From Desulfobacterales bacterium (GTDB lineage Bacteria > Desulfobacterota > Desulfobacteria > Desulfobacterales > UBA11574): DNA of 36,485 nt. The stretch spans positions 1 to 36,485 of the forward strand of contig JAUVTO010000002.1 in the NCBI GenBank assembly GCA_030601485.1, read 5' to 3'. This document shows positions 3,764-35,530 of this stretch, piece after piece (the first letter of the stretch is position 1; every line of letters begins with the position of its first letter). Below the pieces are notes generated by a model. It saw only the letters and a program-made list of their open reading frames with translations, was not told the origin of the DNA and did no database searches. Position numbers and translations under genes: made by a program.

Positions 3764-4735
3764 ATGGCATACGATATTCAAACATGGGTAAGTGTAGCAG
3801 CGTTTAGTGCCGGCGGAATTACCATGGGATTCGGCGCCATAGGAGCGGCGATAGGTGAAGGATATACCGCCGCAAGCGCTAATGAGGCCATCGGCCGTAA
3901 CCCCGAACAGTCGGGTGATATTTTCAAGTCCATGCTGGTAGGGCAGGCCATTGCCGAATCTGCTGCTATTTTTGCGCTGGTCATTGCAATGATGCTTTTG
4001 TTTACGAATTTTACATCACATATTTTAATGATACCTGTTTTATTGAGCGCTGGTTTGTGTATGGGGCTGGGGGCCATCGGTGCCGGCGTAGGTGCGGGAT
4101 ATCCTGCGGCAGCCGCCTGTAGAGGCATGGCCAGGCAGCCGTCCATGAGTGGGCGCTTAACTACCAACATGCTGATCGGTTCAGCGGTCTGCCAGACCCC
4201 TGCGATCTTTGCGTTGGTGGTGTCGTTTATTTTAATGTTTACAGATTTTTCATCAAGTCCGGTTTCACCGACATGGGCGGCGATTCTGGGTGCAGGGATT
4301 TCGTCCGGGTTTGGAGCCATCGGCTCAGGCTTAGGCGGTGGTATGGTTGCGGAAGCCAGTTGTGATGGGATCGCCCGGCAGCCCTTAACTGTAACATCGG
4401 TGACCAATGTCATGCTTCTCGGCCAGGCAGTCACCCAGACCACCGCCATATATGCACTTTTAGTAAGCTTTATCTTGATGTTCAAATCCTTTCCGGCAAC
4501 CGATTTATTAGCCCCTCCCATGGCTTTGCTGGCGGCCGGCTTGTGTATGGGTATCGGTGCCATCGGCCCGGCAATCGGTGAAGGCTTTGCCGGTCGCAGC
4601 GCCGTCGACGGGATTGCACGCAACGAAAAACACATTGCGGATTTGACAAGATTGATGCTGGTGGGGCAGGCGGTGGCCGAGTCAACGGGGATTTATTCCC
4701 TGGTCATTGCTCTAATCCTGATTTTTGTTATTTGA
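3764..4735 (+). CDS. Fused four-hairpin (about 8 TM) F-type ATP synthase c subunit
   Basis: 323 aa made of four tandem c-subunit units. Each has a Gly-rich helix 1 (GxGAIGxxxGxG), a polar loop (GRNPEQ / ARQPSM / ARQPLT / ARNEKH) and a helix 2. The helix-2 carboxylate is present in units 1 and 4 (E65, E306) and is Gln in units 2 and 3 (Q144, Q225). The ATG lies 3 nt after the atpB stop. Confidence 0.85.
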   Translation: MAYDIQTWVSVAAFSAGGITMGFGAIGAAIGEGYTAASANEAIGRNPEQSGDIFKSMLVGQAIAESAAIFALVIAMMLLFTNFTSHILMIPVLLSAGLCMGLGAIGAGVGAGYPAAAACRGMARQPSMSGRLTTNMLIGSAVCQTPAIFALVVSFILMFTDFSSSPVSPTWAAILGAGISSGFGAIGSGLGGGMVAEASCDGIARQPLTVTSVTNVMLLGQAVTQTTAIYALLVSFILMFKSFPATDLLAPPMALLAAGLCMGIGAIGPAIGEGFAGRSAVDGIARNEKHIADLTRLMLVGQAVAESTGIYSLVIALILIFVI

Positions 4736-4790
4736 TGGTAACGTTTCTTGAAAAATAAAATCTAAACCCAAATTATATAGGAGGATTAAA

Positions 4791-5039
4791 ATGGCAATTG
4801 AAGGTGCGGATCTGATAAGAGCATCTGCTTATCTAGGAGCAGGTCTTGCTATGGGACTCGGGGCAATCGGTCCTGGAGTAGGTGAAGGTATGGCAGCCGC
4901 AAAAGCATGTGAAGCAATCGGTAAGAATCCTAAAGAGGCGGGCCTGTTGACCCGAACGATGCTGGTGGGACAGGCGGTTTCCGAGTCTACCGGAATTTAT
5001 TCACTGGTGATTGCATTACTGCTTTTATTCGTTGTTTAA
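4791..5039 (+). CDS. atpE: F-type ATP synthase Fo subunit c (single hairpin)
   Basis: 82 aa with a strong SD (AGGAGG at 4779-4784). Motifs are [10 protein letters not shown], loop GKNPKE, and [18 protein letters not shown] (E65-S66-T67...Y70). Confidence 0.92.
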
Positions 5040-5072
5040 TTTCTATAGCATTGTTTTAATGGAAGATAGCTT

Positions 5073-6173: not shown

Positions 6174-6181
6174 AGTATTAT

Positions 6182-6270
6182 CTCGTTAGGGGTGTTGGTA
6201 TCATCTGAGAGTCCGGGAAAGGACAACCCTTAACCACCTGATCAGGGTAATACCTGCGAAGGGAAACGGG
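6182..6270 (+). promoter_or_regulatory. TPP (THI-box) riboswitch aptamer
   Basis: Contains the canonical blocks aGGGGUG...CUGAGA...ACCCUU..ACCUGAUCaGGGUAAUACCuGCGaAGGGA. P1 can form between 6182-6187 and 6265-6270. It lies upstream of thiC. Confidence 0.9.
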
Positions 6271-6294
6271 CCTGCGATTCGGATTTGATTGTCC

Positions 6295-6519: not shown

Positions 6520-7797
6520 ATGACACAGATTGAAGCGGCCCGAAGCAATCGGATTACAGATGCCATGCATCAGGTTGCCCAAAAAGAGGGGCTTACCGCC
6601 GAACAGGTGCGCGAAAAAGTGGCCGCCGGCGTGCTGGTAATTCCCAAAAACCGCAACCGGGATTTCGAAGCGCGCGGCATCGGCCAGGGCTTGAAAACCA
6701 AGGTGAATGCCAACATCGGCACTTCCCCGAGCCACCATGACCTGAAAGAAGAACTGACCAAGCTCGACACGGCTGTTGCGGCCGGTGTGGATGCGGTGAT
6801 GGATCTTTCCACCGGTGGAAATCTCGACCTCATATTGGAGACCATATTGAAACGCTCCCCGGTCATGGTCGGCACCGTTCCGATCTATAAAGTCGTCAGC
6901 AAGTTGATGGCAAATAACAAAACTCCGGTACAGATGACCGCGGACGACCTTATGGAGGAAATCGAGATGCAAGCCGAGCTGGGAGTTGATTTCATAACGG
7001 TGCATTGCGGTATTACCCGACAAAGCTTAAGCGCTCTTAAGGGGTGCAATCGGATTATGGGCATGGTGTCGCGCGGCGGCAGCTTTATCGCTGAGTGGAT
7101 CACGGCCAATAAAAAGGAAAACCCCCTGTTTTCCCAATATGATCGTCTGTTGGAAATCTGCCGGCAACATGATGTTACCCTGTCTTTGGGGGATGGACTT
7201 CGACCCGGGGCAATCCATGATGCCGAAGATCGTGCCCAAATTTCCGAGCTTTTAATTTTGGGCGAGCTGACGCGCCGCGCCCGCAAGGCCGGTGTCCAGG
7301 TGATGGTCGAAGGTCCCGGCCATGTTCCGCTGGGACGTATCGCCGGGGATGTACAATTACAAAAGCGCCTTTGTGACAACGCTCCTTATTACGTGCTGGG
7401 GCCTTTGCCCACCGACATTGCCCCGGGCTACGATCATCTGGTAGGCGCCATCGGCGGGGCGGTGGCTGCTGCCAGCGGTGTGGATTTCTTATGTTATCTG
7501 ACACCTGCCGAACACTTGCATCTGCCCACGGTCCAGGATGTCCATGACGGCGTCATGGCCACGCGGATTGCGGCCCATATCGGCGATCTGGAAAAAGGGT
7601 TGCCCGGGGCCGAGGACTGGGATAGGAGGATGTCCATGGCGCGACGGGAATTCGACTGGGAAACCATGTATAACCAGGCCATCGACCCGGAATTGGCCCG
7701 CAAGCGCCGTATGCAGACCGAAGATCATGATCGGGATGTCTGCACCATGTGCGGTGATCTTTGCGCGATTAAAACCTTTGATCGTATCATACTTTAA
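6520..7797 (+). CDS. thiC: Phosphomethylpyrimidine synthase
   Basis: 425 aa, short anaerobe-type ThiC, with the C-terminal CxxCxxxxC cluster motif (CTMCGDLC). SD GGAGG lies upstream of the ATG. Confidence 0.92.
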   Translation: MTQIEAARSNRITDAMHQVAQKEGLTAEQVREKVAAGVLVIPKNRNRDFEARGIGQGLKTKVNANIGTSPSHHDLKEELTKLDTAVAAGVDAVMDLSTGGNLDLILETILKRSPVMVGTVPIYKVVSKLMANNKTPVQMTADDLMEEIEMQAELGVDFITVHCGITRQSLSALKGCNRIMGMVSRGGSFIAEWITANKKENPLFSQYDRLLEICRQHDVTLSLGDGLRPGAIHDAEDRAQISELLILGELTRRARKAGVQVMVEGPGHVPLGRIAGDVQLQKRLCDNAPYYVLGPLPTDIAPGYDHLVGAIGGAVAAASGVDFLCYLTPAEHLHLPTVQDVHDGVMATRIAAHIGDLEKGLPGAEDWDRRMSMARREFDWETMYNQAIDPELARKRRMQTEDHDRDVCTMCGDLCAIKTFDRIIL

Positions 7798-7830
7798 CGA
7801 ACGAGATCTTTGAAAGTAGGAAATCATCGG

Positions 7831-8595
7831 ATGAAAGATTTGACCGCAACCCAGAAGATTCGGTATTCGCGCAATATCCTGGTGCCGGAAATCGGCATAA
7901 CCGGACAGCAAAAGCTTTTAAGGGGCCGGGTTCTGGTGGTAGGTGCCGGAGGATTGGGCAGCCCCGCCTTGTTTTACCTGGCCTGTGCCGGCGTCGGGAC
8001 TATAGGTATTATGGATGGGGATCGAGTCGAATTGTCCAACCTGCAGCGCCAGATTTTGTATACATTGAAGGATCTGGACAATTTGAAGACCCATTCGGCC
8101 CAAGAAAAATTGCATCGCCTGAACCCGGATGTTTGCATTGAACCGTACAACGAGCCGTTTACTGCAAAAAACGGCCCAGCGTTGGTAAGCCGGTACGACT
8201 TTGTGATCGAGGCCACGGATAATTTCGAAGCCAAGTTTCTGGTCAACGACATATGTATTCATGCCAAGGTTCCCTTCTGCCATGCTGGCATCTTGGGCAT
8301 GTTCGGCCAGGTCATGACCATTGTGCCCGGCCAAGGTGCCTGTTACCGTTGCGTGTTCGGCAACATTCCCGAGCCGGATCAGGTATCCTCCACCGACCAA
8401 GTCGGGGTTTTGGGGGTGGTGCCTGGCGCGCTGGGGAGCATACAGGCCGCCGAAGCCGTCAAATTCTTGACCGGCAGCGGAAAATTGCTGATAGGGCGGC
8501 TGTTGACCTACGACGCCCTGAATTTGATATTTCGGGAAATCGAACTGCCGCCGCCATGTTGCGACGTATGCCGGGGGGCAGAACTCATCCAATAA
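7831..8595 (+). CDS. thiF: ThiF/MoeB-family sulfur-carrier adenylyltransferase
   Basis: Rossmann motif [10 protein letters not shown] and two CxxC pairs (CYRC, CDVC). Start chosen at ATG 7831 (MKDLTATQK). The ORF-track start at 7810 is a TTG and is possible but less likely. Confidence 0.85.
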
Positions 8596-8609
8596 AAAAG
8601 GAGATGACC

Positions 8610-9398
8610 ATGACCCAATTACCTCCGCTGATTATTGCGGATCGCACCTTTCATTCCCGCCTGCTGGTCGGGACCGGCAAGTTTGCCTCCACCCAGATAA
8701 TGCAGAAGGCTATTGCGGCCTCTGGAGCCGAGATTGTCACCGTGGCTCTGCGCCGTGTTGATTTGAGCGATCCCCAGGACAACTTCATGGAAGCCATTGA
8801 TAGAGATCGCTACCTGTTTTTGCCCAACACCAGCGGTGCCAGGGATGCGGAGGAAGCCATGCGTCTGGCACGAATCGCCCGGGCAGCGGGATGCGATCCG
8901 TGGGTCAAGCTGGAAGTGACGCCCGATCCCCATTATCTGCTGCCCGATCCGGTGGAAACCCTGAAGGCGGCCGAAATTCTGGTTAAAGAAGGATTCAAGG
9001 TACTTCCCTACATTAATGCGGACCCGGTCCTGGCCAAGCGGCTGGAAGAGGTGGGGACGGTTACGGTGATGCCTCTGGGGGCCCCTATCGGAACCAACCG
9101 CGGTTTGAAAACACGCGACGCGATTCAGATCATCATCCAACAGGCACAGGTGCCGGTGGTGGTGGATGCCGGACTGGGAGCGCCTTCCCATGCGGCGGAA
9201 GCCATGGAGATGGGCGCTGATGCCGTTTTAGTTAACACCGCCATTGCTACAGCCGGCGATCCGGTGGGCATGGCAGAGGCCTTCCGGCTGGGTGTGGAAG
9301 CCGGGTTTAAGGCATACATATCAGGTCTGGGCCGACATTCTTGGGAGGCAGAAGCCAGCTCCCCTCTGACCGGATTTTTAAGGAACAATCACGCATGA
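8610..9398 (+). CDS. thiG: Thiazole synthase
   Basis: [25 protein letters not shown]... with VKLEV (Schiff-base Lys). SD AAAAAGGAG (8595-8603) is 6 nt before ATG 8610; ATG 8604 is an alternative. The ORF-track extension back to 8253 overlaps thiF and is not believed. Confidence 0.9.
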
Positions 9399-10507
9399 GT
9401 TTCTGGCAGAAAATCATTCAATATCGATGGGATCAGATCGAAGCGGCGATTTCCAGCAAGACGGCCGAAGACGTTCGGCAGGCCTTGAGAGCGCCTACTC
9501 GAAACTTTGACGACCTGTTGGCGCTACTCGCTCCGGTTGCGGCCGACTTTCTGGAAGAAATGGCTCTGGCGGCCCATGGGCTGACGGTTCAGCGCTTCGG
9601 CCGGACCATCCAAATGTTCGCTCCTGTTTATGTGTCCAACGAATGCATCAATTTCTGTGTATATTGCGGGTTCAACCGCCACAATCAAATATCACGCGCC
9701 ACCCTTAGCGTAGCGGAAGTGGAGAAGGAAGTGATGTTTTTGCACGGACAGGGATTCCGTCACGTGCTTTTGCTGACCGGTGAGTCGCCACACCACGTAC
9801 CGGTGGAGTACTTGATCCGCATCGCCCGTAAATTGCGGCCGCTTTTAGCGTCCATATCCATCGAAATCTATCCGATGGCAACGGATGACTACCGCCGTCT
9901 GATCGAAAACGGCGTGGACGGATTGACCGTTTACCAGGAGACCTACCATCTAAAACGGTATGCCGAGGTTCATCCTGCCGGTCCCAAGCGCAACTACCGC
10001 TGGCGCCTGGAAACCCCGGACCGCGGAGGTCAGGCCGGATTCCGTCGGCTCAATATCGGCGTCCTATTAGGATTGTGTGACTGGCGCGTGGAAGGGGCCT
10101 ACGTGGGATTACACGCCGCCTATCTGGCGCGCAGCTACTGGCAAAGCCACGTGTCTGTCTCCTTTCCACGCCTGCGGCCTGCGGCCGGAGGATTTCAGCC
10201 CCAATTTCCCGTAAACGACGCCCATATGGTGCAGCTCATGTGCGCGCTGAGACTCTGGCTGCCCGATGCAGGGCTGGTGCTGTCCACGCGCGAACCCGCC
10301 AGCCTGCGCGAGAATCTGCTGCCTCTGGGGATTACCCAAATGAGTGCGGGCAGCAAAACCGCACCGGGCGGTTATGTGGCCAAAGAAAACGTCGAGGGCC
10401 AGTTTGAGATCAGCGACCTTCGCAGTCCGCAAGAAGTCGTCCGCATGATCGCCGCCCACGGTTACGAGCCGGTCTGGAAGGATTGGGATGCGGTTTTTTT
10501 GCGATAA
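9395..10507 (+). CDS. thiH: 2-iminoacetate synthase (tyrosine lyase), radical SAM
   Basis: MSFWQKI... with the CxxxCxxC motif (CINFCVYC). The start overlaps the thiG stop (ATGA at 9395-9398). Confidence 0.9.
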
Positions 10508-10542
10508 CCCGGCAAATCGCCGGTTTGCAAGAGGAGCTATTT

Positions 10543-10749
10543 ATGGCGATTCATATCAAGCTTAACGGTAAAACCCACGCGGTTGAACACCGTATGGATA
10601 TCTTATCATTTCTGGAAACATTGAAGGTGCCTCCCGCCAGTGTTGTGGTGGAGCGCAACCGAAATATTTTACACCGGGGCATGTTTGACAGCGTTGTTTT
10701 GAAAGACGGGGATGAACTGGAACTCATTCGATTTGTAGGTGGGGGATGA
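10543..10749 (+). CDS. thiS: Sulfur carrier protein ThiS
   Basis: 68 aa, MAIHIKLNGK..., ending in GGG (ubiquitin-like Gly-Gly C-terminus). SD GAGGAG at 10531-10536. Confidence 0.85.
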   Translation: MAIHIKLNGKTHAVEHRMDILSFLETLKVPPASVVVERNRNILHRGMFDSVVLKDGDELELIRFVGGG

Positions 10750-11408
10750 ATCGTAAAGAACGTTTGGTAAAATTAAAGGCCATCGATATTTATCCGGTTA
10801 CCTGCCAAGAGCTTTCAGAAGGCCGAACCAACTTGGAAGTGCTGGAGGCGGTCCTGGCAGGCGGTGCCAAAATCATTCAGCTCAGGGAAAAGCATTGGGA
10901 CAAGAAGGATCTTTATGAACTGGCCATTGAATTCCGCAAACGCACCCGAAGCCAACACGCGCTCCTGATTATCAACGATCATGTGGACGTGGCCCTGGCT
11001 GCAGGAGCCGACGGGGTCCATTTGGGTCAGGAAGATCTGCCCATCGGGGCGGCACGCAAAATCGCCCCGGAGCTGATTATCGGTGCTTCCAGCCACAATC
11101 TGACAGAGGCCCTGAAGGCCGAGCAAGACGGTGCCGATTACGTGAACATCGGTCCCATTTTCCCCACGAAGACCAAAGCAAATACGGTCCGTTTCCTGGG
11201 ACCTGAAGCCATCGGCGAAATCGGGCCGCAGCTCACCGTGCCCTTTACCACCATGGGCGGTATCCATCCGGACAATATCGACCGGGTTCTGGAAGCGGGC
11301 GCGCGCTGTGTGGCCATGATCACCGGCATAACGCGTGCTGCGGATATCACGGCAAGGGTGCGCCGGCTCCGAAAAACCATCACCGATTATTATGACAGTT
11401 CTCATTAG
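10746..11408 (+). CDS. thiE: Thiamine-phosphate synthase
   Basis: 220-aa TMP-TENI pattern (IQLREK, INDHVDVALAAGADGVHLGQEDL, GPIFPT). ATGA overlap with thiS. Confidence 0.9.
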   Translation: MNRKERLVKLKAIDIYPVTCQELSEGRTNLEVLEAVLAGGAKIIQLREKHWDKKDLYELAIEFRKRTRSQHALLIINDHVDVALAAGADGVHLGQEDLPIGAARKIAPELIIGASSHNLTEALKAEQDGADYVNIGPIFPTKTKANTVRFLGPEAIGEIGPQLTVPFTTMGGIHPDNIDRVLEAGARCVAMITGITRAADITARVRRLRKTITDYYDSSH

Positions 11409-11582: not shown

Positions 11583-11888
11583 TTAATAATATTTGACGCC
11601 AATGCCAAAACGAGAAGCGTCTTCGCTGCTCATTTCCTTCCACCATCTTACTTCAGCGAGCGATGCGGTTCGCAGCCCATTGCAGAGTTCCGGTTCAGAA
11701 GTATCAAAGGAACAGGTTTTCACCTTGAAGAAAATATTCGTTCCTTCTTTGAAAAATGAATCAGACTCAAAATACATGCCGCCTTCACCGCAGTTGAGCA
11801 TTGTGGCATTAAAGGTTTTATCTTTATTAAAACAGTTGCATATAACGGATGCTTCGCATTTATGGCGTTTATCAGCTCTCTTTTGCAT
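11583..11888 (-). CDS. PilZ-domain protein (single domain)
   Basis: 101 aa with RxxxR (RADKR) near the N-terminus and NCGEGGMYFES in the position of the D/NxSxxG motif. It is a paralog of the N-terminal half of 18299-18805. Confidence 0.7.
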   Translation of the reverse strand: MQKRADKRHKCEASVICNCFNKDKTFNATMLNCGEGGMYFESDSFFKEGTNIFFKVKTCSFDTSEPELCNGLRTASLAEVRWWKEMSSEDASRFGIGVKYY

Positions 11889-11957
11889 AGGATATAAAAG
11901 CTCCTGATTTGCGGCGAATTCGTTATTTAATCCATAGGTTGTTTTAGTTTGCCCGAT

Positions 11958-12254
11958 TTAAGGTACGGTCAGATTAAGGATATTGTTGTAACTCCCGAAG
12001 CAGTTTAAACAAGTCTGGTCATTTTGGGGATCTTCTTTCCAGTGCCCGTCAACAAGAAATTTATACTCGTAGCTTCCGGAAGGTAGAATCACAGCCTTAT
12101 TCCACACGCCATTCCTATCCTGCTTCATAAGATGTTTTTTGGGATTCCAATTATTAAAGTCTCCCATCAAAATGACCTTTTTAGCACCTGATAAATCAAT
12201 GGAAAATGTTACTTTTTTCCGCTTGATTTTCTTTTTTGATTTGACCTTTGCCAT
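11958..12254 (-). CDS. Stand-alone CBM48 / AMPK-beta-like glycogen-binding domain protein
   Basis: VTFSIDLSGAKKVILMGDFNNWNPKKHLM...GVWNKAVILPSGSYEYKFLVDGHWKEDP is the classic CBM48/E-set pattern. Start set at ATG 12254 (MAKVKSKKK), 6 nt after SD GGAGG. The ORF-track ATG at 12269 lies inside that SD region. Confidence 0.8.
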   Translation of the reverse strand: MAKVKSKKKIKRKKVTFSIDLSGAKKVILMGDFNNWNPKKHLMKQDRNGVWNKAVILPSGSYEYKFLVDGHWKEDPQNDQTCLNCFGSYNNILNLTVP

Positions 12255-12337
12255 GCAATACCTCCTCATATAAAATTGCTTCGAGATTTTATGTCATGTT
12301 CACTTAAAATAGATCATTATCAAATTATAATTTAATC

Positions 12338-12436
12338 TGTCCATAGAGGAGGGGATTCATTTTGATGGTGGAAAACCCCTGTGGGGCGGGAAGTTATCCC
12401 ACGCAATCGGGAGAAAAACTGATGAGATAGGTTTTT
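12338..12436. promoter_or_regulatory. Conserved intergenic element, copy 1 (about 100 bp)
   Basis: TGTCCATAGAGGAGGGGATTCATTTTGATGGTGGAAAACCCCTGTGGGGCGGGAAGTTATCCCACGCAATCGGGAGAAAAACTGATGAGATAGGTTTTT. It aligns with 14189-14286 and 19034-19129. It lies 84-182 nt upstream of the CBM48 gene start (minus strand). Confidence 0.85.
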
Positions 12437-12545
12437 GAGGGCAGTCTTATTTTTTTCATGGATTAAGCCAATCAACAAGTCTGAGTTTCGGCTTATACGT
12501 GTGATGATCGATAGCTGTTTAATCTTAGTTTACAGTGTGATGAGG

Positions 12546-12842
12546 CTATTCCTTAAATCCATAGTGAAACATTTCATATTCGGTTTTTCCCCCAAGCAAA
12601 GCATCTATCTTATCTTGAGCTTCCTGTCTTTCCTTGCTTAACAACCATTTTTCCCAGTATTCAGAGGACTTCCAGGTACTGATAACCAGAAACGTATCGG
12701 GTCTATCCAGGCTTTTTAAGGTTTCACCGGAGATATAACCCGACTGGTTTGTCGCGAGGACTCTCATTTGTCTAAATAGGGGTATCATTTCCTTTGCCTT
12801 GTTTTCCGGTACAGTCCGTTTAATTAGAATTTTAACAGCCAT
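12546..12842 (-). CDS. ABM (antibiotic biosynthesis monooxygenase-like, ferredoxin-fold) domain protein
   Basis: 98 aa. The pattern ...GYISGETLKSLDRPDTFLVISTWKSSEYWEKW... is typical of small ABM/Dabb proteins. Confidence 0.65.
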   Translation of the reverse strand: MAVKILIKRTVPENKAKEMIPLFRQMRVLATNQSGYISGETLKSLDRPDTFLVISTWKSSEYWEKWLLSKERQEAQDKIDALLGGKTEYEMFHYGFKE

Positions 12843-12907
12843 TTTGTCCTCCTTTAATATAAAAGATTATATTAGCTTTTATCTTTAAGAAAGTTCCCTT
12901 ATGGTGG

Positions 12908-14095
12908 TTATTCCTGATACACATGTGATCGAGTAACCGGCAACGTATTGTCCAATCCTTTGGAGACAAGGATCTGAAACAGGCGAGAATCGCCGTACTT
13001 AAATCCTGCTGCCGCACTGTTTAAAAACAGACGCCATTGCCTCACAAACGTTTCATCAAATAATTTCCTAATTTTCTCTATATTTTCTTCAAAATTTTCT
13101 GCCCACTTTTCAAGAGTTTTGGCATAGTGCAGCCGCAAATTTTCTACATCCAGGATGGAAAAACCGGTTTTTCCCATTTCTTTCACAATTTCGTGAAGTG
13201 TCGGAATATAGGTTCCGGGAAAGATATAACTAAACGTCCAGGGATCTCCGGCAGACGGGGTATCTTTTCCAATGGTATGCAGCAGGGCCAGCCCTCCGCT
13301 TTTTAATAAATCCGAAACTTTTTGAATAAAAGCAGGAATAAATTTTTTCCCTACGTGTTCCATCATGCCTATGGAAACTATTTTATCAAATTTATCATCT
13401 AACTGTCTGTAATCCTGACATAAAATCTTAAGCTGATTTTGAAGCCCCAACTCTTCGATTTTACGATTGGCGTATTGGAACTGATTTTTCGATAGCGTAA
13501 TTCCAACTCCGGTTATGCCATATTTCCGGGCTGCATAGATAAGCATTCCGCCCCAGCCGCACCCAATGTCGAGAAGCGATTCATTAGGCTTAAGCAAAAG
13601 TTTGCGGGAAATATGTTCGTATTTGTTCAATTGTGCCTGTTCCAGAGAATCGTCCGGCTTTGAAAAATACGCACAGGAGTAAGTCATGGTCTTGTCAAGA
13701 TAGAATGCATAAAATTCATCGCCCCTGTCGTAATGAAAGGAAATGTTTTTTGGGGTTTGTCGCAGGGTAGAACTGTTTAGCAGCGAAAGGATAAGCGGTT
13801 GAAATTTTTGCCAGAAAGGTAACCGGTAATTGTCAAAATCAATGGCGAATCCCAGACGGAAAAGTTTTAGAAGATCCTTCTCTATTTCCAGATCTCCCTC
13901 CATATAGGCTTCTCCAAACCCTAAAAATCCTTTTCTGATGATTTTTTTGGTACAACTTTTGGTTTTCAGGCGTAATATTACCTCTGGAAAGTTTCCAAAG
14001 CGTATGGCATCACCATCCCAGAATTCTATGGCAAAGCATGCCCCTGGGTCAGATTGATGCATCATTTGGGCGATATTTTTGATAACCTTTTTCAT
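12908..14095 (-). CDS. cfa: Cyclopropane-fatty-acyl-phospholipid synthase family SAM-dependent methyltransferase
   Basis: 395 aa with SAM motif I (LLDIGCGWGGM) and CMAS-family blocks (YDRGDEFYAFYLD, SIGMMEHVG, YIFPG). Confidence 0.85.
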   Translation of the reverse strand: MKKVIKNIAQMMHQSDPGACFAIEFWDGDAIRFGNFPEVILRLKTKSCTKKIIRKGFLGFGEAYMEGDLEIEKDLLKLFRLGFAIDFDNYRLPFWQKFQPLILSLLNSSTLRQTPKNISFHYDRGDEFYAFYLDKTMTYSCAYFSKPDDSLEQAQLNKYEHISRKLLLKPNESLLDIGCGWGGMLIYAARKYGITGVGITLSKNQFQYANRKIEELGLQNQLKILCQDYRQLDDKFDKIVSIGMMEHVGKKFIPAFIQKVSDLLKSGGLALLHTIGKDTPSAGDPWTFSYIFPGTYIPTLHEIVKEMGKTGFSILDVENLRLHYAKTLEKWAENFEENIEKIRKLFDETFVRQWRLFLNSAAAGFKYGDSRLFQILVSKGLDNTLPVTRSHVYQE

Positions 14096-14188
14096 ATGGC
14101 ATAAAAAGGTTGTGATTAAAAGACTTGTGATTTCGTCAGGTTGTGGAATTTCCGGAACATTTAATTAGTACCAGAATATAATTCATTT

Positions 14189-14286
14189 TGTCCATAGAGG
14201 AAATTCTTTATTTTGATGGTGGAAACCCCTGTGGGGCGGGAATTTATCCCACCCGCTCGGGTGAAAAACTGATAAAATAGGTTTTT
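14189..14286. promoter_or_regulatory. Conserved intergenic element, copy 2
   Basis: TGTCCATAGAGGAAATTCTTTATTTTGATGGTGGAAACCCCTGTGGGGCGGGAATTTATCCCACCCGCTCGGGTGAAAAACTGATAAAATAGGTTTTT. It lies 94-191 nt upstream of the cfa start and about 10 nt downstream of the response-regulator stop. Confidence 0.85.
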
Positions 14287-14296
14287 GTAGACAGGC

Positions 14297-14974
14297 TTAT
14301 CCTTTCCACAGGTCCACGTCGATAATTCCTAACCTTGCGGCATATCGAACCAGCTCTATGGTGCTGTGGAGATTAAGCTTGCGCAAAATATTTGATCTGT
14401 GGTTCTCAACAGTTTTGGGGCTGATGAAAAGTTTTTCCGCGATCTTTTTGGTGGAAAGGCCCTGGGCCAGCAACACCATGATTTCTTGCTCTCGGGAGGT
14501 CAGAGTTTCATAGGAGGCATCGGTTATCTTCGCCTCTTTTTCCGGGAATTGCATAAGCTTTTTAACCACTTTATGGGAGACGGAACTGTCCATGAAATAT
14601 TCTCCCTTCAAGACAGTATCTATCCCCTGTAAGAGTCTTTCAGAGGCCGATTCCTTGACCACATATCCTGTTGCTCCGGCCTGAAATGCCTTAACAATAT
14701 AATCCACTTTGGAATGCATGGTGACCATCATAATACGTATTTTCGGCAATGCATTCTTAAGTTCGCGGGTGAGTTGAATGCCGCTTTGATCCGGCAAAGA
14801 CATGTCCACCAGCGCCAGATCAGGCTTGAGTTCCCTCGCCATTTGGAGCCCTTCACGTCCGTTTCCAGCCTCCCCGACCACCTCAAACCTATTATTGCGT
14901 CCGATGATCGCTTTGAGGCCTTCTCTGAAAAGGGGATGGTCGTCTATTATTAATATGGTTTTCTTATGAACCAC
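14297..14974 (-). CDS. NarL/LuxR-family response regulator (REC + HTH_LuxR)
   Basis: Receiver (ILIIDDHPLFREG...LALVDMSLPD) plus a LuxR HTH (LTSREQEIMVLLAQGLSTKKIAEKLFISPKTVENHRSNILRKL). Start placed at GTG 14974 (VVHKKTIL) after AAGGA. The 283-aa ORF-track version runs into the kinase gene. It overlaps the kinase 3' end by 11 nt. Confidence 0.85.
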   Translation of the reverse strand: MVHKKTILIIDDHPLFREGLKAIIGRNNRFEVVGEAGNGREGLQMARELKPDLALVDMSLPDQSGIQLTRELKNALPKIRIMMVTMHSKVDYIVKAFQAGATGYVVKESASERLLQGIDTVLKGEYFMDSSVSHKVVKKLMQFPEKEAKITDASYETLTSREQEIMVLLAQGLSTKKIAEKLFISPKTVENHRSNILRKLNLHSTIELVRYAARLGIIDVDLWKG

Positions 14975-17207
14975 TCTTTTGGTCCTTATATGGAAGCGTG
15001 ATAGAGATCTTTGTACCCTGCATCGGCCTTGATTGAATTTCCATTTCACCTTGAAGCAGTTTGGCCCTTTGCTCCATGCTCCGAATTCCCATTCGTTTCT
15101 CTTCTGATAGGGTTGCCAATCGTTTCTGCACATCAAAACCCTTACCATTATCTTCTATACGAAGAATAATATTAGGAAAAGCTGCAACCAGTCTGATGGT
15201 CACATGGTCAGCGTCAGCGTGCTTTTTGATATTGGTAAGACTTTCTTGAATCAAACGATACAGGTTGATTTCGGTGTCAAAATCCAGCTTTAAATTCTTC
15301 ATGCCGGCGGAATGGAAATCAACATTTATTCCATTGTCTTCAGAAAAATCATGACAATACTGAAAAATAGCCTGTACAAGTCCCATTTCGTCGAGCACTG
15401 AAGGTCGTAAATAATATGAGAGATCCCGGACTGCTTTGATGACCTCCTGAAGCATTATTGACATTTCAGACATTCTTCGCCTGATCTCAGGGGTTATATT
15501 TGGCTGATTATCAAAAAGCGTTTCACAGCCGATTTTTACCGCGGAAAGCTCTTGCGCCACGTGGTCGTGCAAATCACGAGAAATTCTCTGACGCTCATTT
15601 TCTTGGGATTTCATCAACTCGCGGGTGAGAGCATGAATCTGTTCTTCGGCCCGTTTTCGCTCGTTGATATTACGCAATGAGCCAATAATTTTTTCAGGAT
15701 TACCATGCTTATCTCTTATCAGCTTTGCCGTTATCGAACAATAGGTTTGAGAGCCTTCTTTATCTATCATAAGCGCTTCATAGTCAGTGACTTTTCCATT
15801 TTTCAGAAGCTTTTTTAGAAATTCATCTCTATTTTTCGGATCAACATATATATCGGATAATGATTTTCCTATGATCTCTTCTCTTTTGTAGAACGAAACA
15901 TCCTCTATCGAGGGGCTGGCTTCTAAAATTATTCCATCAAGGGTTACTTCATAATAAACATCCTGGATATTTTTAAAAATGTTGCGATATTTCTCTTCAC
16001 TTTTCCTCAGAGCCTCCTCCGCCCGCTTTTTTTCGGTAATATCAGTAATAAATGCAAAGGCGCCCTGTACCTCGCCCGATTTACCCCTGATTGTGGTGGC
16101 ATTAAAATATGTTGGCAGGTCTTCACCGCTCTTTTTTTTTAAGGTAATTTCATAACTGCGATGGGCTGTGACGGATATCTTTGAGGTCTGTTCAATAAAA
16201 ATTTTTCGGTTCTCATCATCAACGAAGTCAAAGGGTGTTTTGCCAATCATCTCATCTTGACTGTAGCCAAGCATTTTGGAAAGAGCCGCGTTGACTTCGA
16301 TAGTTTTGAGTTCAGAATTTATCAGCCAGCATCCTTCCGATGTAATTTCCAGAAGGGTTCGGTATTTCTCTTCGCTTGCTCTCAGCGCCTCCTCTCCTTG
16401 TTTCCGTTCGACAATTCTTCCCGTTAGCCCGGCAATAGCATTGATCAAATTCCTTTCTTCTCTAAGGAAAGGACCTTCATCAATTGCCGGTCTTTCTTCC
16501 AGGTAATAAACCTCCAAAATACCGCTCGGTTCACCATGCACTTTAATATCGCCGACCTGCTTCCAAATTGTCTCCCGGAAATTTTTTGTTCTCCATTCTC
16601 TGCCTTGTATAATAACTCGTGCGCAAGTTATTTCCGGATATTGCCACGAAGGGGGAATAAGATCAACTGTCCCCTGAAGTATCTCCTCCAACGCAACATC
16701 CTGCTGTTCAACAAGATTGGCAATACCATAGAGGCAGTTGAGTTCCTTGACCCGTTCGCCAAGATCATGGGTCTTCTTCCGCAAGGCTTTCTCTACATGC
16801 TTATATTCTGTAACGTCGTGCCAGATGCTGATGATAACACCCGGCTCCTTATCTGCAACTCGTTCAAGGAGAGAAGCATTTACGTTGAAATGGCTTACTT
16901 TGTCCTTTGTTGTCATCCGGAATTCGGCATTATGGTAAAAACCTTCGAGGCGAACCTTTTTTTCCATCTCAGACCAACGGTTCAAAGCATTGGCATCGAG
17001 TTGTTCAAGCCAGATGAACATACTGGTCTCAACGACATCCCGCCACTGCCGTCCGAAGAACGTGCAAAAGGTCTCATTGACCACGATAATAGTATGCGTC
17101 GAGTCCGTAATCACGATACCGTCGGCCGAGGCACGCAGCAGCGTCTCGAAGAACTTTACTGTCTGCCGGGTGGCTTCTAATTCGCCTTTCCTAAGTCGTT
17201 TGCTCAT
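14964..17207 (-). CDS. Cytoplasmic multi-PAS sensor histidine kinase (HisKA_3 / HATPase_c, NarX-DegS type)
   Basis: 747 aa with no obvious TM. It has at least three PAS-like modules, an H-box (RISRDLHDHVAQEL) and ATPase N/G boxes (ESLTNIKKHA, EDNGKGF). Confidence 0.85.
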   Translation of the reverse strand: MSKRLRKGELEATRQTVKFFETLLRASADGIVITDSTHTIIVVNETFCTFFGRQWRDVVETSMFIWLEQLDANALNRWSEMEKKVRLEGFYHNAEFRMTTKDKVSHFNVNASLLERVADKEPGVIISIWHDVTEYKHVEKALRKKTHDLGERVKELNCLYGIANLVEQQDVALEEILQGTVDLIPPSWQYPEITCARVIIQGREWRTKNFRETIWKQVGDIKVHGEPSGILEVYYLEERPAIDEGPFLREERNLINAIAGLTGRIVERKQGEEALRASEEKYRTLLEITSEGCWLINSELKTIEVNAALSKMLGYSQDEMIGKTPFDFVDDENRKIFIEQTSKISVTAHRSYEITLKKKSGEDLPTYFNATTIRGKSGEVQGAFAFITDITEKKRAEEALRKSEEKYRNIFKNIQDVYYEVTLDGIILEASPSIEDVSFYKREEIIGKSLSDIYVDPKNRDEFLKKLLKNGKVTDYEALMIDKEGSQTYCSITAKLIRDKHGNPEKIIGSLRNINERKRAEEQIHALTRELMKSQENERQRISRDLHDHVAQELSAVKIGCETLFDNQPNITPEIRRRMSEMSIMLQEVIKAVRDLSYYLRPSVLDEMGLVQAIFQYCHDFSEDNGINVDFHSAGMKNLKLDFDTEINLYRLIQESLTNIKKHADADHVTIRLVAAFPNIILRIEDNGKGFDVQKRLATLSEEKRMGIRSMEQRAKLLQGEMEIQSRPMQGTKISITLPYKDQKSGS

Positions 17208-17482
17208 AGTAATTCAAATTTGCTTCTCTCTCGGGCATTAATAATTTCCCAACAAAGAAAAAACGAAAAGGCCCATACTTTGATACAGTTTATATACTGT
17301 ATATGAGCCTTTATCTATCACATAGGGTTACCCCTGAATTTGGCTGTTATTATCTTATTTCTATTTTATTCTAACAGGTTATATGTCATTTTGAATCGGG
17401 CCTTCAATTTTGTTTAGTCATAAATATTATAGATAAAAATATATTTCTATAAAAAAAAACTATTACAAATTTTAAAAAACAA

Positions 17483-17548
17483 GTCTATAGGATAAAGTTC
17501 TTATTTGTGTAGGAAAACATCCTAAAGATATAGGGAGTTATCCCGAAC
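17483..17548. promoter_or_regulatory. Degenerate fourth copy of the conserved intergenic element, upstream of the kinase operon
   Basis: GTCTATAGGATAAAGTTCTTATTTGTGTAGGAAAACATCCTAAAGATATAGGGAGTTATCCCGAAC. It keeps GTCyATAG, TTCTTtATTTg.TG.aGGAAAAC and the GGGAGTTATCCC dyad (17533-17544), in the same orientation as copies 1-3. Confidence 0.55.
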
Positions 17549-17644
17549 TTGAATCAAATATTACAATGCCATACGGTTAATGGACAACAAAATATATCAT
17601 TCTGCCCTGGCTTTCAGGTTCTTGCCTCCCTTTGGCATGGTTTT

Positions 17645-17737
17645 TGGAATTTGATGCTTGAGATTTGGGATTTATTTGGAATTTGGTACTTGGAATTTGG
17701 GATTTAATTGATCTTTGTCGCCTGGAATTTGGGATTT
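17645..17737. repeat. Degenerate direct repeats of TGGAATTTGGGATTT
   Basis: Exact 15-mers at 17691-17705 and 17723-17737. Partial copies at 17645-17656, 17663-17673 and 17677-17690. Confidence 0.8.
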
Positions 17738-17800
17738 CAAAAAATCCGTGAACGGTTACAAATGATCCTTAACCCGCTACACCCATCAGCACACTTGTTT

Positions 17801-18073
17801 CTAATTTTGTGCTAAATGACGTTCATTTTCTCCGATAAAAATTAGGTTGCAGAGTTTCTCTAAGTCGCCAAAGTTCTTTTGCAACACATTCCTGCCAAAT
17901 GAATAAATGGTCCTAAGATCATTAGTATCAATAAAGATTTGATAAAAATTGTTTCCATGATCTTTAATAGTATTGATCAATTCATATGCCGACGTTCCAT
18001 CAAAATCACCATTCAGTTTCAGATGAAGACTGTCTCTGGTTTTATAAGATACAATTTGAAAATTTGCAGCCAT
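17801..18073 (-). CDS. Small hypothetical protein, possibly STAS-like (anti-sigma antagonist fold)
   Basis: Start set at ATG 18073 (MAANFQIV...), 7 nt after SD AAGGAG. LHLKLNGDFDGTSAYEL...IFIDTNDLRTIYSFG loosely follows the STAS pattern. The function call is weak. Confidence 0.45.
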   Translation of the reverse strand: MAANFQIVSYKTRDSLHLKLNGDFDGTSAYELINTIKDHGNNFYQIFIDTNDLRTIYSFGRNVLQKNFGDLEKLCNLIFIGENERHLAQN

Positions 18074-18298
18074 TGCGTATCTCCTTTTAAAGCAATTAAA
18101 ACCATACAAGAAATAAGAAAAAGGTCATTATCCCTGCCGGTACAGTTAAATCCCTTTTTACCAGCAGGGACTGAACACCACCACCCAGGTGGTGATATAT
18201 CTGCCAGAAGTTATAAACGGTATCACCATTGACTTTGTGATTTAACCCGGCATTGTTCACCCTTCGACAGTTCGCTCAATCGGGGAATGAGTGAGGTT

Positions 18299-18805
18299 TC
18301 AGATGACGTTTCCGATCAGGAATTCCTTTATGCTTTCCTTAATCTTACCCTCAGGTAAGTCCTCTAAATAATTAAAACAATTTATACACAAACAGACAAA
18401 ATCTTCGTTCTCAAGGATTTCTTCAGAAGGCACCTTTTCGCCGCATAAGTCACACGAACAGCTTAATCCATGAACATTCCCACCATAAACTGCATGGCTT
18501 TTAGCCAGATATTGGATGCCGATTCCATAACAGGAAGTTTCACTTTTATCTATTTTTTTGCACCATTTTACTTTCGCCCGATAGGCCTTGTAAGCTTCAG
18601 GGCCAGGCGTATCAGGCGTGTAATTTACCATTTTAATGCAAATATCTGACTTTTGCTTGATGGCATGGTCTGACTCGAAATACATACCGCCAAGGCCGCT
18701 GTTATACATTTTGGCATTATAATAGTTTTCCGTATCATAATTTGCATACATGATAGGGGCTTCATAAGAATTGCGGGAATACGCTCTTTTTATTAATGTA
18801 GACAT
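18299..18805 (-). CDS. PilZ-domain protein with a C-terminal Cys-rich (2x CxCxxC) module
   Basis: 168 aa with RxxxR (RAYSR) and NSGLGGMYFES. The C-terminal region has CSCDLC (C116/118/121) and CLCINC (C138/140/143). Confidence 0.7.
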   Translation of the reverse strand: MSTLIKRAYSRNSYEAPIMYANYDTENYYNAKMYNSGLGGMYFESDHAIKQKSDICIKMVNYTPDTPGPEAYKAYRAKVKWCKKIDKSETSCYGIGIQYLAKSHAVYGGNVHGLSCSCDLCGEKVPSEEILENEDFVCLCINCFNYLEDLPEGKIKESIKEFLIGNVI

Positions 18806-19033
18806 TTTTTTACTCCTACTTGAATTTTGTAACTAAAAATATGAATTCGGTAACAACTAACCCTGGAGCGGGTTTTTTTGCCAAACTTATTGGTTTACTT
18901 GGAGCAATTTTGATCTTGCATAGTTTGTATCTAACAATTTGATTTCTCGGAATTGAATAGAGGTTTTTCTTTGTAAATGTCCAACCTTCTATTTTTGGAA
19001 CTTTATCTTTTTTATTACGCTTTATATTCAATT

Positions 19034-19129
19034 TGTCCATAGAGGGAAGGCTTCATTTTGATGGTGGGGACCTCTATGGGAGCGGGAGTTTATCCCACAC
19101 AATCGGGAGAAAAACGGATGAGATAGGTT
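19034..19129. promoter_or_regulatory. Conserved intergenic element, copy 3
   Basis: TGTCCATAGAGGGAAGGCTTCATTTTGATGGTGGGGACCTCTATGGGAGCGGGAGTTTATCCCACACAATCGGGAGAAAAACGGATGAGATAGGTT. It lies directly downstream of the DUF72 stop and 229-324 nt upstream of the PilZ/Cys-rich gene. Confidence 0.85.
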
Positions 19130-19137
19130 GTAACCGT

Positions 19138-19875
19138 TCAGGGGTTCAGAAGGTCTTTGAGCCTCAGAGCATTTTTAGGTGCATGCCCCATCGCATCGTT
19201 GTCAAAGTAAACATAAGTATCTACGCCCCATTTTTTTATCTTTTCAGCCCAGTTGTTAATTTCGTTTTCTGAGTATTCGGACACATATAGTTTTCTTGAT
19301 CCATGCAGACGAATATAGATAAAATTAGATGTTACTGCTTCAAGATAGGGGTAGCGTCCCGCAGTGTCTGAAATACACCATGCAATATTATGTTTTTTTA
19401 AAGAAAATAGCGCCTTTTCTTCCAACCAACTCGGGTGTCTTGCCTCTATAGCTACGCACTTATTTTTTGGCAGGAAGTTGCAAAATAAATCGAAAACTTC
19501 CTTTTCAAAGGTCAGTGTGGGCGGGAGCTGGAAAAGAATTGCCCCAAGCTTTTCTTTTAATCCCGATACCTCACCAAAAAACTTTTTTAATGGTTCTGCG
19601 ATATCTTTTAGCCTTTTGATATGGGTTATGTAACGGTTCGCTTTGACCGACCAAATAAACCCATCCGGTGTTTTTTCCCTCCAGGTTTCGTAAGTTTTGT
19701 GAGACATGGATCGGTAGAAGGTCGCGTTTACTTCAACGCTGTTAAAGTGTTTTGCGTAGAATTTCAACCAATCGGACTTGGGACAGCTCTTCTCATAAAA
19801 TACTTGTTTCCAGTGATCATAGTTCCATCCGGAGGTTCCGATATGTATCTTGTTCTGCATTTGAGGTAAAACCAT
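19138..19875 (-). CDS. DUF72 (UPF0759) family protein
   Basis: 245 aa. IHIGTSGWNYDHWKQVFY...FNSVEVNATFY...LFQLPP matches the DUF72 signature. It is the last gene of the glycogen operon. Confidence 0.75.
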   Translation of the reverse strand: MVLPQMQNKIHIGTSGWNYDHWKQVFYEKSCPKSDWLKFYAKHFNSVEVNATFYRSMSHKTYETWREKTPDGFIWSVKANRYITHIKRLKDIAEPLKKFFGEVSGLKEKLGAILFQLPPTLTFEKEVFDLFCNFLPKNKCVAIEARHPSWLEEKALFSLKKHNIAWCISDTAGRYPYLEAVTSNFIYIRLHGSRKLYVSEYSENEINNWAEKIKKWGVDTYVYFDNDAMGHAPKNALRLKDLLNP

Positions 19876-32909: not shown

Positions 32910-32993
32910 GATTGACGATTGATGATTGTCGATTGTCGATTGAAAAATTGAAGATTGATGATTGGTGATTGATGATTGGTGATTGATGATTAA
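32910..32993. repeat. Tandem heptamer repeat (GATTGNN, about 12 units)
   Basis: gattgac gattgat gattgtc gattgtc gattgaa aaattga a gattgat gattggt gattgat gattggt gattgat gattaaa. It begins right after the metK stop. Confidence 0.85.
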
Positions 32994-33020
32994 AGAATGA
33001 GAAAGATAGATATGATCAAA

Positions 33021-35237: not shown

Positions 35238-35378
35238 AATAACTCCTTGGCCTATTTTTTTAATCATATCGTTTTTCAAAATAACGTTTGGTTTCAGAGG
35301 CCGATCCATCAGAACATATTCCCGAGAATCCTCCGAATAACACTGAGTTAATCACTTAGTTTTGTCAATAATAATTTT

Positions 35379-35398
35379 GACAGTCTCGTAAAAAGTCC
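35379..35398 (-). repeat. Inverted solo fragment of the right end of the 121-bp repeat
   Basis: GACAGTCTCGTAAAAAGTCC equals the reverse complement of copy A's right end (GGACTTTTTACGAGACCGTC, 392-411) with 1 mismatch. Confidence 0.75.
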
Positions 35399-35409
35399 GA
35401 TTTAGACGG

Positions 35410-35530
35410 TTTCGTAAAAAGTTCAAATTCAAGGCGTGCAAATTTTGTAATCATGAGGCGTACTTTTCGTACGTTGAATGATTACGAAATGCAGCACAAC
35501 GCAGAAGTTGGACTTTTTACAAAACCGTCA
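35410..35530 (+). repeat. 121-bp long-hairpin repeat, copy B
   Basis: Aligns to 292-412 with 5 mismatches. It overlaps the last codons and the stop of minus-strand dusB. Confidence 0.9.

Follow-up and report, generated by a model that had tools for sequence, protein, structure and literature searches.

Why should a single bacterial locus carry the same intergenic block of roughly 100 bp ahead of several separate transcription units, and is what has been kept there a promoter, an RNA or just a repeat? The question is raised by a stretch of 36,485 nucleotides (nt; the window, below) from contig JAUVTO010000002.1 of a Desulfobacterales bacterium (assembly GCA_030601485.1), in which copies of this element surround the genes for a two-component system, a kinase with several PAS domains and a NarL-type response regulator. 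The original prediction left a choice between a shared operator and promoter forming a local regulon of this adjacent pair, a structured RNA leader or small RNA (sRNA) family and a dispersed repeat without regulatory role. Comparative evidence favours the first option in so far as a shared promoter and operator are concerned, yet speaks against a regulon that is merely local, and binding by the regulator is something we infer. Judged from sequence, the element is probably a shared promoter with upstream regulator-binding sites that is run by the adjacent PAS-kinase/NarL-type system, with the identity of the binding protein less certain than the promoter-operator nature of the element itself.

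Three copies sit exactly where they had been described (12338-12436, 14189-14286 and 19034-19129), all of them read on the minus strand. Gapped pairwise alignment gives 86%, 83% and 80% identity, which agrees with the 80-90% claimed by eye, while the flanks of the three copies reach 47-55% by the same method. A 34-nt pattern derived from the three copies (CCACCATCAAAATNAAN6CCTCTATGGACA) matches the window exactly 3 times, always on the minus strand, with 0 matches expected from shuffles. The coordinates given for a GGGA-N5-TCCC dyad in copies 1-3 are correct, each copy, read on the minus strand, has TGGACA at its end, and copy 2 begins 11 nt past the stop codon of the LuxR-type regulator gene. 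The claim of invariant blocks holds in part, since two of the blocks have one substitution each in one copy: CGGGAnTTTATCCCAC, in which copy 1 has G for T, and GATAGGTT, which is AATAGGTT in copy 2. What is conserved extends further than described, namely by about 22 nt beyond the gene-side end, up to a GATAAT-like box, and by about 35 nt on the other side in copies 1 and 2. As full modules, copy 1 (12316-12442) lies upstream of genes for a CBM48 protein (11958-12269) and a PilZ protein (11583-11888), copy 2 (14165-14293) upstream of cfa (12908-14095) and an ABM gene (12546-12842), and copy 3 (19012-19136) just past the stop of a DUF72 gene (19138), where it precedes a truncated small open reading frame (ORF) and the gene for a PilZ-like/Cys-rich protein of 168 amino acids (aa; 18299-18805). 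With a profile of homologues, nhmmer detected a new fourth, diverged copy on the same strand (17460-17548, E = 3.2e-5), about 250 nt upstream of the histidine kinase start (17207). Its internal spacing is that of the rest of the family and its position suggests autoregulation of the two-component operon.

Close relatives of the element were gathered with exact and degenerate patterns, run over collections of genomes and metagenomes, and then with nhmmer. This gave 84 close copies (73 unique), the named records being nearly all Desulfobacterales or related metagenome-assembled genomes and the others metagenome contigs. There are 1-4 close copies per locus, co-oriented without exception inside a locus, and exact-pattern scans of 185,579 genomes found 1-3 copies per genome. 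The gene neighbourhood of the window recurs in related loci, and the module stands upstream of five kinds of operon: cfa, CBM48-PilZ, a gene for a 90-aa protein, the operon of the PilZ-like 168-aa protein, and an operon that joins a small Cys-rich gene to a GlgA-like one. Paralogous copies cluster by the type of downstream gene, not by genome, which argues that they are old duplicates whose similarity was kept by selection rather than by recent conversion. Just upstream of some copy-3-type elements there is a partial inverted copy of the promoter-proximal blocks (TGTCCATA...ATGGTGG; L108, 7142-7190, also L001, L111 and L115), which decays fast between genomes; that the element stays conserved next to a decaying neighbour again points to selection on the element. 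One copy (L045, 76-279, and L114, 1-146, both minus strand) is broken after CTCTAT and runs into unrelated GC-rich sequence, which is an insertion or an assembly join; its contig, labelled Bacteroidetes yet with Desulfobacterales-type genes, is probably misbinned.

More divergent copies, of which there are >100 beyond the close set, came from scanning with a degenerate core (CYATNAAAATGAN10CTATRGACA). It occurs at no fewer than 117 loci, with several contigs per genome, and among the matches listed nearly all loci belong to Desulfatiglandales or Desulfobacterales. The carriers include the cultured Desulfoluna spongiiphila AA1, D. limicola ASN36 and Desulforapulum autotrophicum, and complete genomes with the motif are NZ_AP024488.1 (D. 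limicola) and the metagenome-assembled chromosome CP070697.1. Among the diverged matches listed, 114 of 119 lie outside long ORFs and 5 inside. Co-directional genes begin 60-110 nt downstream of the element, the median start of recurrent gene families being 61-111 nt past the ACA of TGGACA. These families comprise two kinds of small Cys-rich proteins (28 and 24 cases), CBM48 (27), cfa (21), the 90-aa protein (13), a GlgA-like protein (7) and the PilZ-like 168-aa protein (5), so that relatives of the cfa-ABM and CBM48-PilZ genes of the window follow the motif in many genomes, too. Going by N-terminal sequence, a 70-aa dodecin-like protein (8 cases) and one- or two-case genes that look like Hsp20, WrbA, CspA and DksA can be added.

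How the element is built was read from a diverse alignment of 74 copies, a conservation profile of 135 unique copies and spacings in 132 copies. From 5' to 3', the aligned core shows a segment rich in T and with CCC, then (C/T)GGGA-N5-TCCC(G/A), some 8 nt that vary and (A/T)(T/C)RGGG(R)-TTT-YCCCYAT; after these come one free position (N), AAAATGA, 10 nt, CTAT(G/A)GACA, about 15 nt and TGnTAAT. What diverged copies share is GGGA-N5-TCCC and a second dyad, ATAGGGG-TTT-CCCCTAT, then AAAATGA, CCTCTATGGACA with its -35-like hexamer and the -10-like box TGnTAAT. The inverted-repeat half-sites GGGA-N5-TCCC and ATAGGGG-N3-CCCCTAT, as would befit an operator, are kept across the 74 diverse copies, and the geometry is rigid: AAAATGA to ACA measures 26 nt in 132/132 copies, with the middle 8 nt free to vary, and for about 126 of 132 the distance between the anchor and the centre of dyad 1 is 28.5-30.5 nt. 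TGGACA is nearly invariant among the 135 unique copies, and the family-wide profile reads T1 G2 G3 A4 C5 A6 ... T22 G23 n T25 A26 A27, in which T22, G23, T25, A26 and A27 past TGGACA are conserved and composition is at background after position ~30. Given this drop past A27, the conserved block ends at the -10-like box. A sigma-70 scan of copy 1 found TGGACA-16-GATAAT with 10/12 matches. Of the features that define a sigma-70-type promoter, the element shows -35-like and -10-like hexamers (the usual spacer being 16-18 nt), the latter weak in some subtypes, and a position ahead of a gene read in the same direction, at a distance plausible for an untranslated region (UTR). The window family differs from most relatives by CCACCAT in place of CCCCTAT and by an extra conserved 5' part (AAAAACCTATCTTATCAGTTTTTC), which diverged copies do not have.

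On the minus strand of the window, these parts are placed as follows. Copy 1 has GATAAT at 12316-12321, TGGACA at 12338-12343, the half-site CCTCTAT at 12343-12349, AAAATGA at 12357-12363, CCACCAT at 12365-12371, a left arm ACAGGGG at 12376-12382 and GGGA-N5-TCCC at 12388-12400, with the clade-specific 5' part reaching up to ~12442. In copy 2, TGGACA (14189-14194) lies between the dyad (14238-14250) and a TG plus TACTAA / GGTACT box (14165-14173), and in copy 3 TGGACA (19034-19039) lies between the dyad (19084-19096) and a TAATAA box (19012-19017). The diverged copy 4 reads GGGATAACTCCC (17533-17544), TAGGA-N5-TCCTA (17510-17524), TAGACT (17482-17487) and TAATAG (17460-17465).

What ties the motif to the two-component system is its recurrent position next to the regulator gene. 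Loci around relatives of the regulator were retrieved, and in about 60 loci, from dozens of genomes, the motif follows the stop codon of regulator orthologues and paralogues (68-93% identity). Paralogous two-component systems, whose regulators are 68-75% identical, have a diverged module copy directly past the regulator stop and often another one upstream of the kinase operon, as copy 4 in the window. Approached from the motif side, 40 of 110 independently sampled loci (among the matches listed) hold a regulator homologue, which typically ends ~100 nt upstream of the motif, and about 70 of the 110 have none in the DNA fetched around them. Since about two thirds of sampled diverged copies are without a regulator gene nearby, the regulon would not only be local. 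Association with the cognate regulator, as one would look for in an operator, is seen both in adjacent targets and in the copies ahead of kinase operons.

Each copy probably acts at the level of DNA, as a promoter-operator cassette of the minus strand. The end nearest the gene would be a sigma-70-type core promoter with TGGACA (TTGACA with one mismatch) as -35 and TGnTAAT or GATAAT, 15-16 nt past this hexamer, as the putative -10. From these two boxes, transcription is predicted to start ~30 nt past TGGACA and leave 5' UTRs of ~30-80 nt. The putative operator would comprise four parts at fixed distances: a CCTCTAT half-site directly next to the -35 hexamer, two dyads, of which ATAGGGG-N3-CC(A/C)C(C/T)AT has its centre near -65 and GGGA-N5-TCCC near -85, and an additional TCCC ~12 nt upstream of the latter. 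In this model, dimers of the phosphorylated NarL/LuxR-type regulator would occupy both dyads as well as the half-site next to -35, and would recruit RNA polymerase or stabilise it; where transcription starts, which protein binds and that regulation is activating are points that we infer. Copy 4 would put the kinase-regulator operon under the control of its own product, and copies 2, 1 and 3 would do the same for cfa-ABM, CBM48-PilZ and the PilZ-like/Cys-rich operon, respectively; in related genomes, the regulator would control further stress and glycogen-storage genes.

Several observations sit uneasily with this promoter-operator model. Copy 2 and its orthologues have only a poor -10-like hexamer (GGTACT / TACTAA). 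Between -35 and -10, the spacer is unusually conserved in the close family (AAnTGAATTA) and contains a palindrome with apparently compensatory differences in two subtypes (CAGAGTG...CACTCTG versus CAGATTA...TAATTTG), whereas a plain promoter needs neither a conserved nor a palindromic spacer; it may be that the spacer holds a second regulator site. A length of 130 nt at 80-86% identity among old paralogues is high for a bacterial operator region. Moreover, the second dyad has its G-run first (ATAGGGG-N3-CCCCTAT), which is the reverse of NarL sites (TACCCCT-N2-AGGGGTA), and with some two thirds of diverged copies lacking a regulator in the fetched DNA, the binder could be another factor.

This last point is the basis of a scenario in which the promoter module is read by an alternative sigma factor or a global stress/stationary-phase regulator, with the two-component system being a member of the regulon and not its master. 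Besides the roughly 70 of 110 sampled loci (among the matches listed) without a regulator homologue, it draws on the general-stress flavour of the downstream genes (cfa and, by N-terminal reading, Hsp20-, WrbA-, CspA-, DksA- and dodecin-like ones) and on an ACA of the hexamer and a flanking CTAT that are more conserved than in usual sigma-70 -35 boxes. We consider it a serious rival but unlikely, given the strong positional link to this one regulator family (~100 nt past the stop in ~60 loci and also ahead of the operon), dyad-symmetric sites that suit a dimeric helix-turn-helix (HTH) regulator better than a sigma factor, and a window in which no sigma or anti-sigma gene was found; sigma-54 (-24/-12), extracytoplasmic-function (ECF) type and sigma-B-like promoters were compared with the sequence by eye and did not fit. 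Far less probable still is a selfish or neutral dispersed repeat, akin to repetitive extragenic palindromes (REP) or miniature inverted-repeat transposable elements (MITE), or a footprint of segmental duplication without regulatory role. Such an origin might explain why the module is seen with differing upstream and downstream neighbours, as if shuffled, and why copy-1-type flanks keep ~25 nt that resemble the 3' end of the regulator gene. It is contradicted, however, by the low copy number seen in whole-collection pattern scans (a few copies per genome among the matches listed), the intergenic position (only 5 of the 119 matches listed are inside genes) and fixed orientation to the downstream gene, by old paralogues that are still 80-86% identical while the neighbouring partial inverted copy decays, and by a lack of terminal inverted repeats or target-site duplications. 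Integron attC sites, considered because co-oriented repeats follow gene ends, were dropped in the absence of R'/R'' cores and with the centre conserved rather than the structure, and a resemblance of copy 2 to an IHF site and a CsgD box was judged to be chance.

As for RNA, a leader (riboswitch or protein-binding attenuator) might be transcribed from the minus strand, either by a promoter further upstream or through read-through out of the regulator or DUF72 gene, and would form GGGA...UCCC and AUAGGGG...CCCCUAU hairpins with alternative pairings. We regard this as quite improbable, even if the element abuts upstream stop codons without a terminator, successive complementary GGGA/UCCC segments could make mutually exclusive hairpins, G-U rather than A-C variants prevail in the GGGA-N5-UCCC dyad and a few diverged copies have compensated arms (e.g. 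TAGGGC-TTT-GCCCTA, ATAAGG...CCTTAT). Rfam cmscan assigned no family to any copy, be it at gathering threshold or at E <= 10, and scans of the whole window and, permissively, of 11900-19400 returned only a TPP (thiamine pyrophosphate) riboswitch at 6178-6281 and chance-level matches. RNAalifold predicts a single 5-bp GGGA/UCCC hairpin, and single-copy folds are not unusually stable (z -0.6 to -2.2), nor are they distinctive on either strand. With a two-hairpin model, the 74 diverse copies are 70.3% paired against 69.9% when shuffled (143/500 shuffles reach the observed pairing), at a covariation of 0.155 against 0.158. A five-helix model drawn by eye (AAAAAC/GUUUUU, GGGA/UCCC, CCAUAG/CUAUGG, GGGGUUC/GAA-CCUU and the spacer palindrome) was rejected because its pairs are at shuffled level, 66 close homologues being 82.2% paired versus 80.0% shuffled and pairs with double changes numbering 8 versus 8.1, which is no excess. 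Hence the idea in the original prediction that both substitutions of copy 3 improve pairing does not generalise: over the 66 close and 74 diverse homologues, covariation does not exceed shuffled controls. Column pairs ranked by mutual information were led by gene-type subfamilies, not by Watson-Crick pairs. In the second dyad the arm CCACCAT is invariant and the partner arm drifts without compensation; mismatches there, on the gene strand, are A-C 184 times and G-U 33 times, and since dyad 1 shows the opposite bias, neither strand is preferred overall. Dyad 2 has one position that clearly varies, and the counts of its four combinations there are 22, 11, 11 and 7, close to the product of column frequencies (hand calculation; chi-square ~3.7, 1 degree of freedom, relatedness ignored). 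No terminator-like site follows any copy, nor is there a consistent platform downstream of the copies for sequestering Shine-Dalgarno (SD) sequences, the leaders differing between gene types. With no Rfam match, no covariation and strand biases at odds, the structured RNA or sRNA option finds no support, and absent covariation together with rigid linkers and no terminator argues for protein-DNA recognition of independent half-sites instead of RNA pairing. Very improbable, in our view, is a plus-strand sRNA gene running antisense to the operons, which would use a (T/C)ATAAT box 6 nt upstream of TGTCCATAGAGG as its promoter. A TATAAT-like box does exist there in copies 1 and 2 (TTAAAA-16-TATAAT scored at 12304-12331), second-dyad mismatches become G-U pairs on the plus strand and plus-strand folds reach z ~-1.2 to -1.9, but ATAAT is not kept in diverged copies, conservation is at background (positions >30) where the plus-strand -35 would lie, dyad 1 is biased the other way, and neither covariation nor a terminator was detected.

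Returning to the promoter-operator cassette, how does it compare with characterised systems? Regulators of the NarL class bind as dimers to inverted CCCCT/AGGGG heptamers upstream of promoters, the 7-2-7 site being TACCCCTAAAGGGGTA and activator sites lying near -40 to -49 or -89 (PMC4549865). The E. coli NarL/NarP promoters have in common with the present case the class of regulator (REC plus GerE HTH, with NarL among the nearest solved structures) and the CCCCT core, which recurs in the element in short inverted repeats rich in CCCCT/AGGGG; by the predicted positions they also share a placement at about -40 to -90, upstream of a sigma-70 promoter. Nonetheless, the element does not conform to the NarL 7-2-7 consensus (TACYYMT-N2-AKRRGTA), the CCCCT core being all that is common to both whereas arm order and spacing differ. 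To what NarL boxes offer it adds one more dyad, GGGA-N5-TCCC, as well as a third, direct half-site, and its whole array forms one rigid block of ~100-130 bp that is reused at several promoters. As the arrangement differs from the NarL 7-2-7 box, we see functional analogy here and not membership.

DesK-DesR, acting at Pdes of Bacillus subtilis, combines a HisKA_3 kinase and a NarL-type regulator beside des, a gene for membrane lipid modification. DesR-type regulators bind inverted repeats just upstream of -35, and VraSR and LiaSR autoregulate their own operon. The window likewise has a kinase-regulator pair beside a lipid-modifying gene (cfa for des), copy 4 suggests autoregulation of the VraSR/LiaSR sort, and DesR and VraR are among the nearest solved homologues of the regulator. 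In contrast to the membrane thermosensor or cell-wall-stress sensor of the DesK/VraS type, however, the window kinase is cytoplasmic and multi-PAS, the set of targets is wider than with DesR, LiaSR or VraSR (glycogen-binding, PilZ and small Cys-rich proteins) and operator sequences are unrelated. The ComA boxes of B. subtilis, where a NarL-family regulator reads an inverted repeat and a downstream half-site upstream of -35, resemble the layout of dyad plus CCTCTAT half-site, yet half-site (TTGCGG for ComA) and spacing differ and the organism is unrelated. Similarities to Rfam cis-regulatory RNAs (~100 nt length, an intergenic site upstream of genes, conserved blocks, internal dyads) are offset by conservation that ends at a -10-like box and by lack of a model match, covariation and an expression platform. 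REP, bacterial interspersed mosaic elements (BIME) and MITE repeats also come as multiple intergenic copies of ~100 bp with internal dyads, but the element is low-copy in the pattern scans, strictly oriented, at fixed distance from start codons and without terminal inverted repeats.

All relevant genes of the locus lie on the minus strand. Their order starts with a glycogen cluster (debranching enzyme, GlgP, GlgA, GlgB, DUF72) and copy 3, continues with the truncated small ORF, the 168-aa PilZ-like/Cys-rich protein, the 90-aa protein and copy 4, then with the multi-PAS HisKA_3 kinase, the REC-GerE regulator and copy 2, and ends with cfa, the ABM monooxygenase gene, copy 1 and the genes for a 103-aa CBM48 glycogen-binding and a 101-aa PilZ protein. 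By Pfam, the regulator (14297-14974) has REC and GerE/LuxR HTH domains of the NarL/VraR/DevR class; its nearest solved structures are VraR, DevR, NarL and DesR, and no NCBIfam equivalog was found at cut-off. Its partner kinase (14964-17207) has several PAS domains, HisKA_3 and HATPase_c. The putative target operons of copies 1 and 2, CBM48-PilZ and cfa-ABM by Pfam, span 11583-14095, and those assigned to copy 3 span 17801-18805, with the 168-aa gene followed by that for the 90-aa protein 'MAANFQIVSYK...' (17801-18073), which has its own module copy in other genomes. A by-eye likeness of this 90-aa family ('MAANFQILSYK') to STAS anti-sigma antagonists had no Pfam or NCBIfam match, and we make no claim of partner switching.

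Among side observations at the locus, the first ORF past copy 3 (18890-18915, minus strand) reads MQDQNCSK* and stops, leaving a leader of ~230 nt to the 168-aa gene. Its N-terminus resembles that of the 72-81-aa Cys-rich proteins found downstream of the motif elsewhere (e.g. MKNQDCLNAS...), and it may be the decayed remnant of a small Cys-rich gene. The cfa leader (14096-14165, minus strand; ATTCTACAACCTGACSAAATCACAAGTCTTTTAATGACAACCTGTTTATGCC) is strongly conserved among orthologues beyond the promoter and could be a region of post-transcriptional control. Upstream of copy 1, the flank at 12437-12474 (minus strand) looks like the end of the regulator gene, from its last codons through the stop into the trailer (CTGTGGAAA.AATAAGCCTG.C.ACA). 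About 25 nt of this flank recur, still conserved, at copy-1-type elements in L026, L086, L089 and L107, and this likeness marks it as a trace of the duplication by which the module was spread. Three 32-nt units (TTTGGAATTTG..TTGGGATTTA; 17643-17738) stand in tandem in the long stretch without genes that separates the 90-aa gene from copy 4, with 69-88% identity to the first unit.

Elsewhere in the window, the TPP riboswitch mentioned above (6178-6281, plus strand; Rfam RF00059, 59.7 bits, above gathering score) precedes thiC and an operon for thiamine biosynthesis (6520-11408). Another dispersed repeat, small and with arms in inverted orientation (core GACGGTTTCGTAAAAAGTCCAA), occurs at both window ends (284-417 and 35370-35535) and also in L004, L108, L111 and L115, where it is inserted in leaders between the element and the 90-aa gene; it may be MITE-like. 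Three related segments like ATP synthase subunit c (3764-5040, plus strand; repeat families D2 and D7) include two inside one 323-aa ORF (3764-4735), which adjoins a separate 82-aa c-subunit gene and may encode a fused or multiplied c subunit. Finally, short GATTG-rich tandem repeats (GATTGACGATTGATGATTGTCGATTG...) occupy 32910-32998 between metK and the gene for S-adenosylhomocysteine (SAH) hydrolase.

Desulfobacterales are a dominant group among the sulfate reducers of the sea and serve as syntrophic partners where alkanes are oxidised anaerobically, and to our knowledge almost nothing is known about their transcriptional regulation; our literature search for such a system in this order found nothing relevant. 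The cis-regulatory motif described here is new, but its kind is familiar and its clade has been little studied; as the mechanism would be that of a conventional activator-dependent promoter, its conceptual novelty is modest. A well-defined motif of ~100 bp would mark promoters and tie a PAS-kinase/NarL-type system to cfa and to genes for glycogen-associated, PilZ and small Cys-rich proteins. Together with its presence in cultured strains, this offers a regulon that can be tested directly and would help to annotate many small genes that are now hypothetical. Going further, we tentatively raise the option, which we hold somewhat short of probable, that the element is the signature promoter of an undescribed, clade-wide stress and carbon-storage regulon in Desulfobacterales and Desulfatiglandales, run by a family of cytoplasmic multi-PAS kinases with NarL-type regulators, in which every system has an operator variant to itself. 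If true, membrane cyclopropanation by cfa would be coupled with glycogen-binding, PilZ, Cys-rich and chaperone-like genes to one redox or energy signal, in clades that include sulfate-reducing partners of alkane-oxidising archaea, such as Eth-SRB2.

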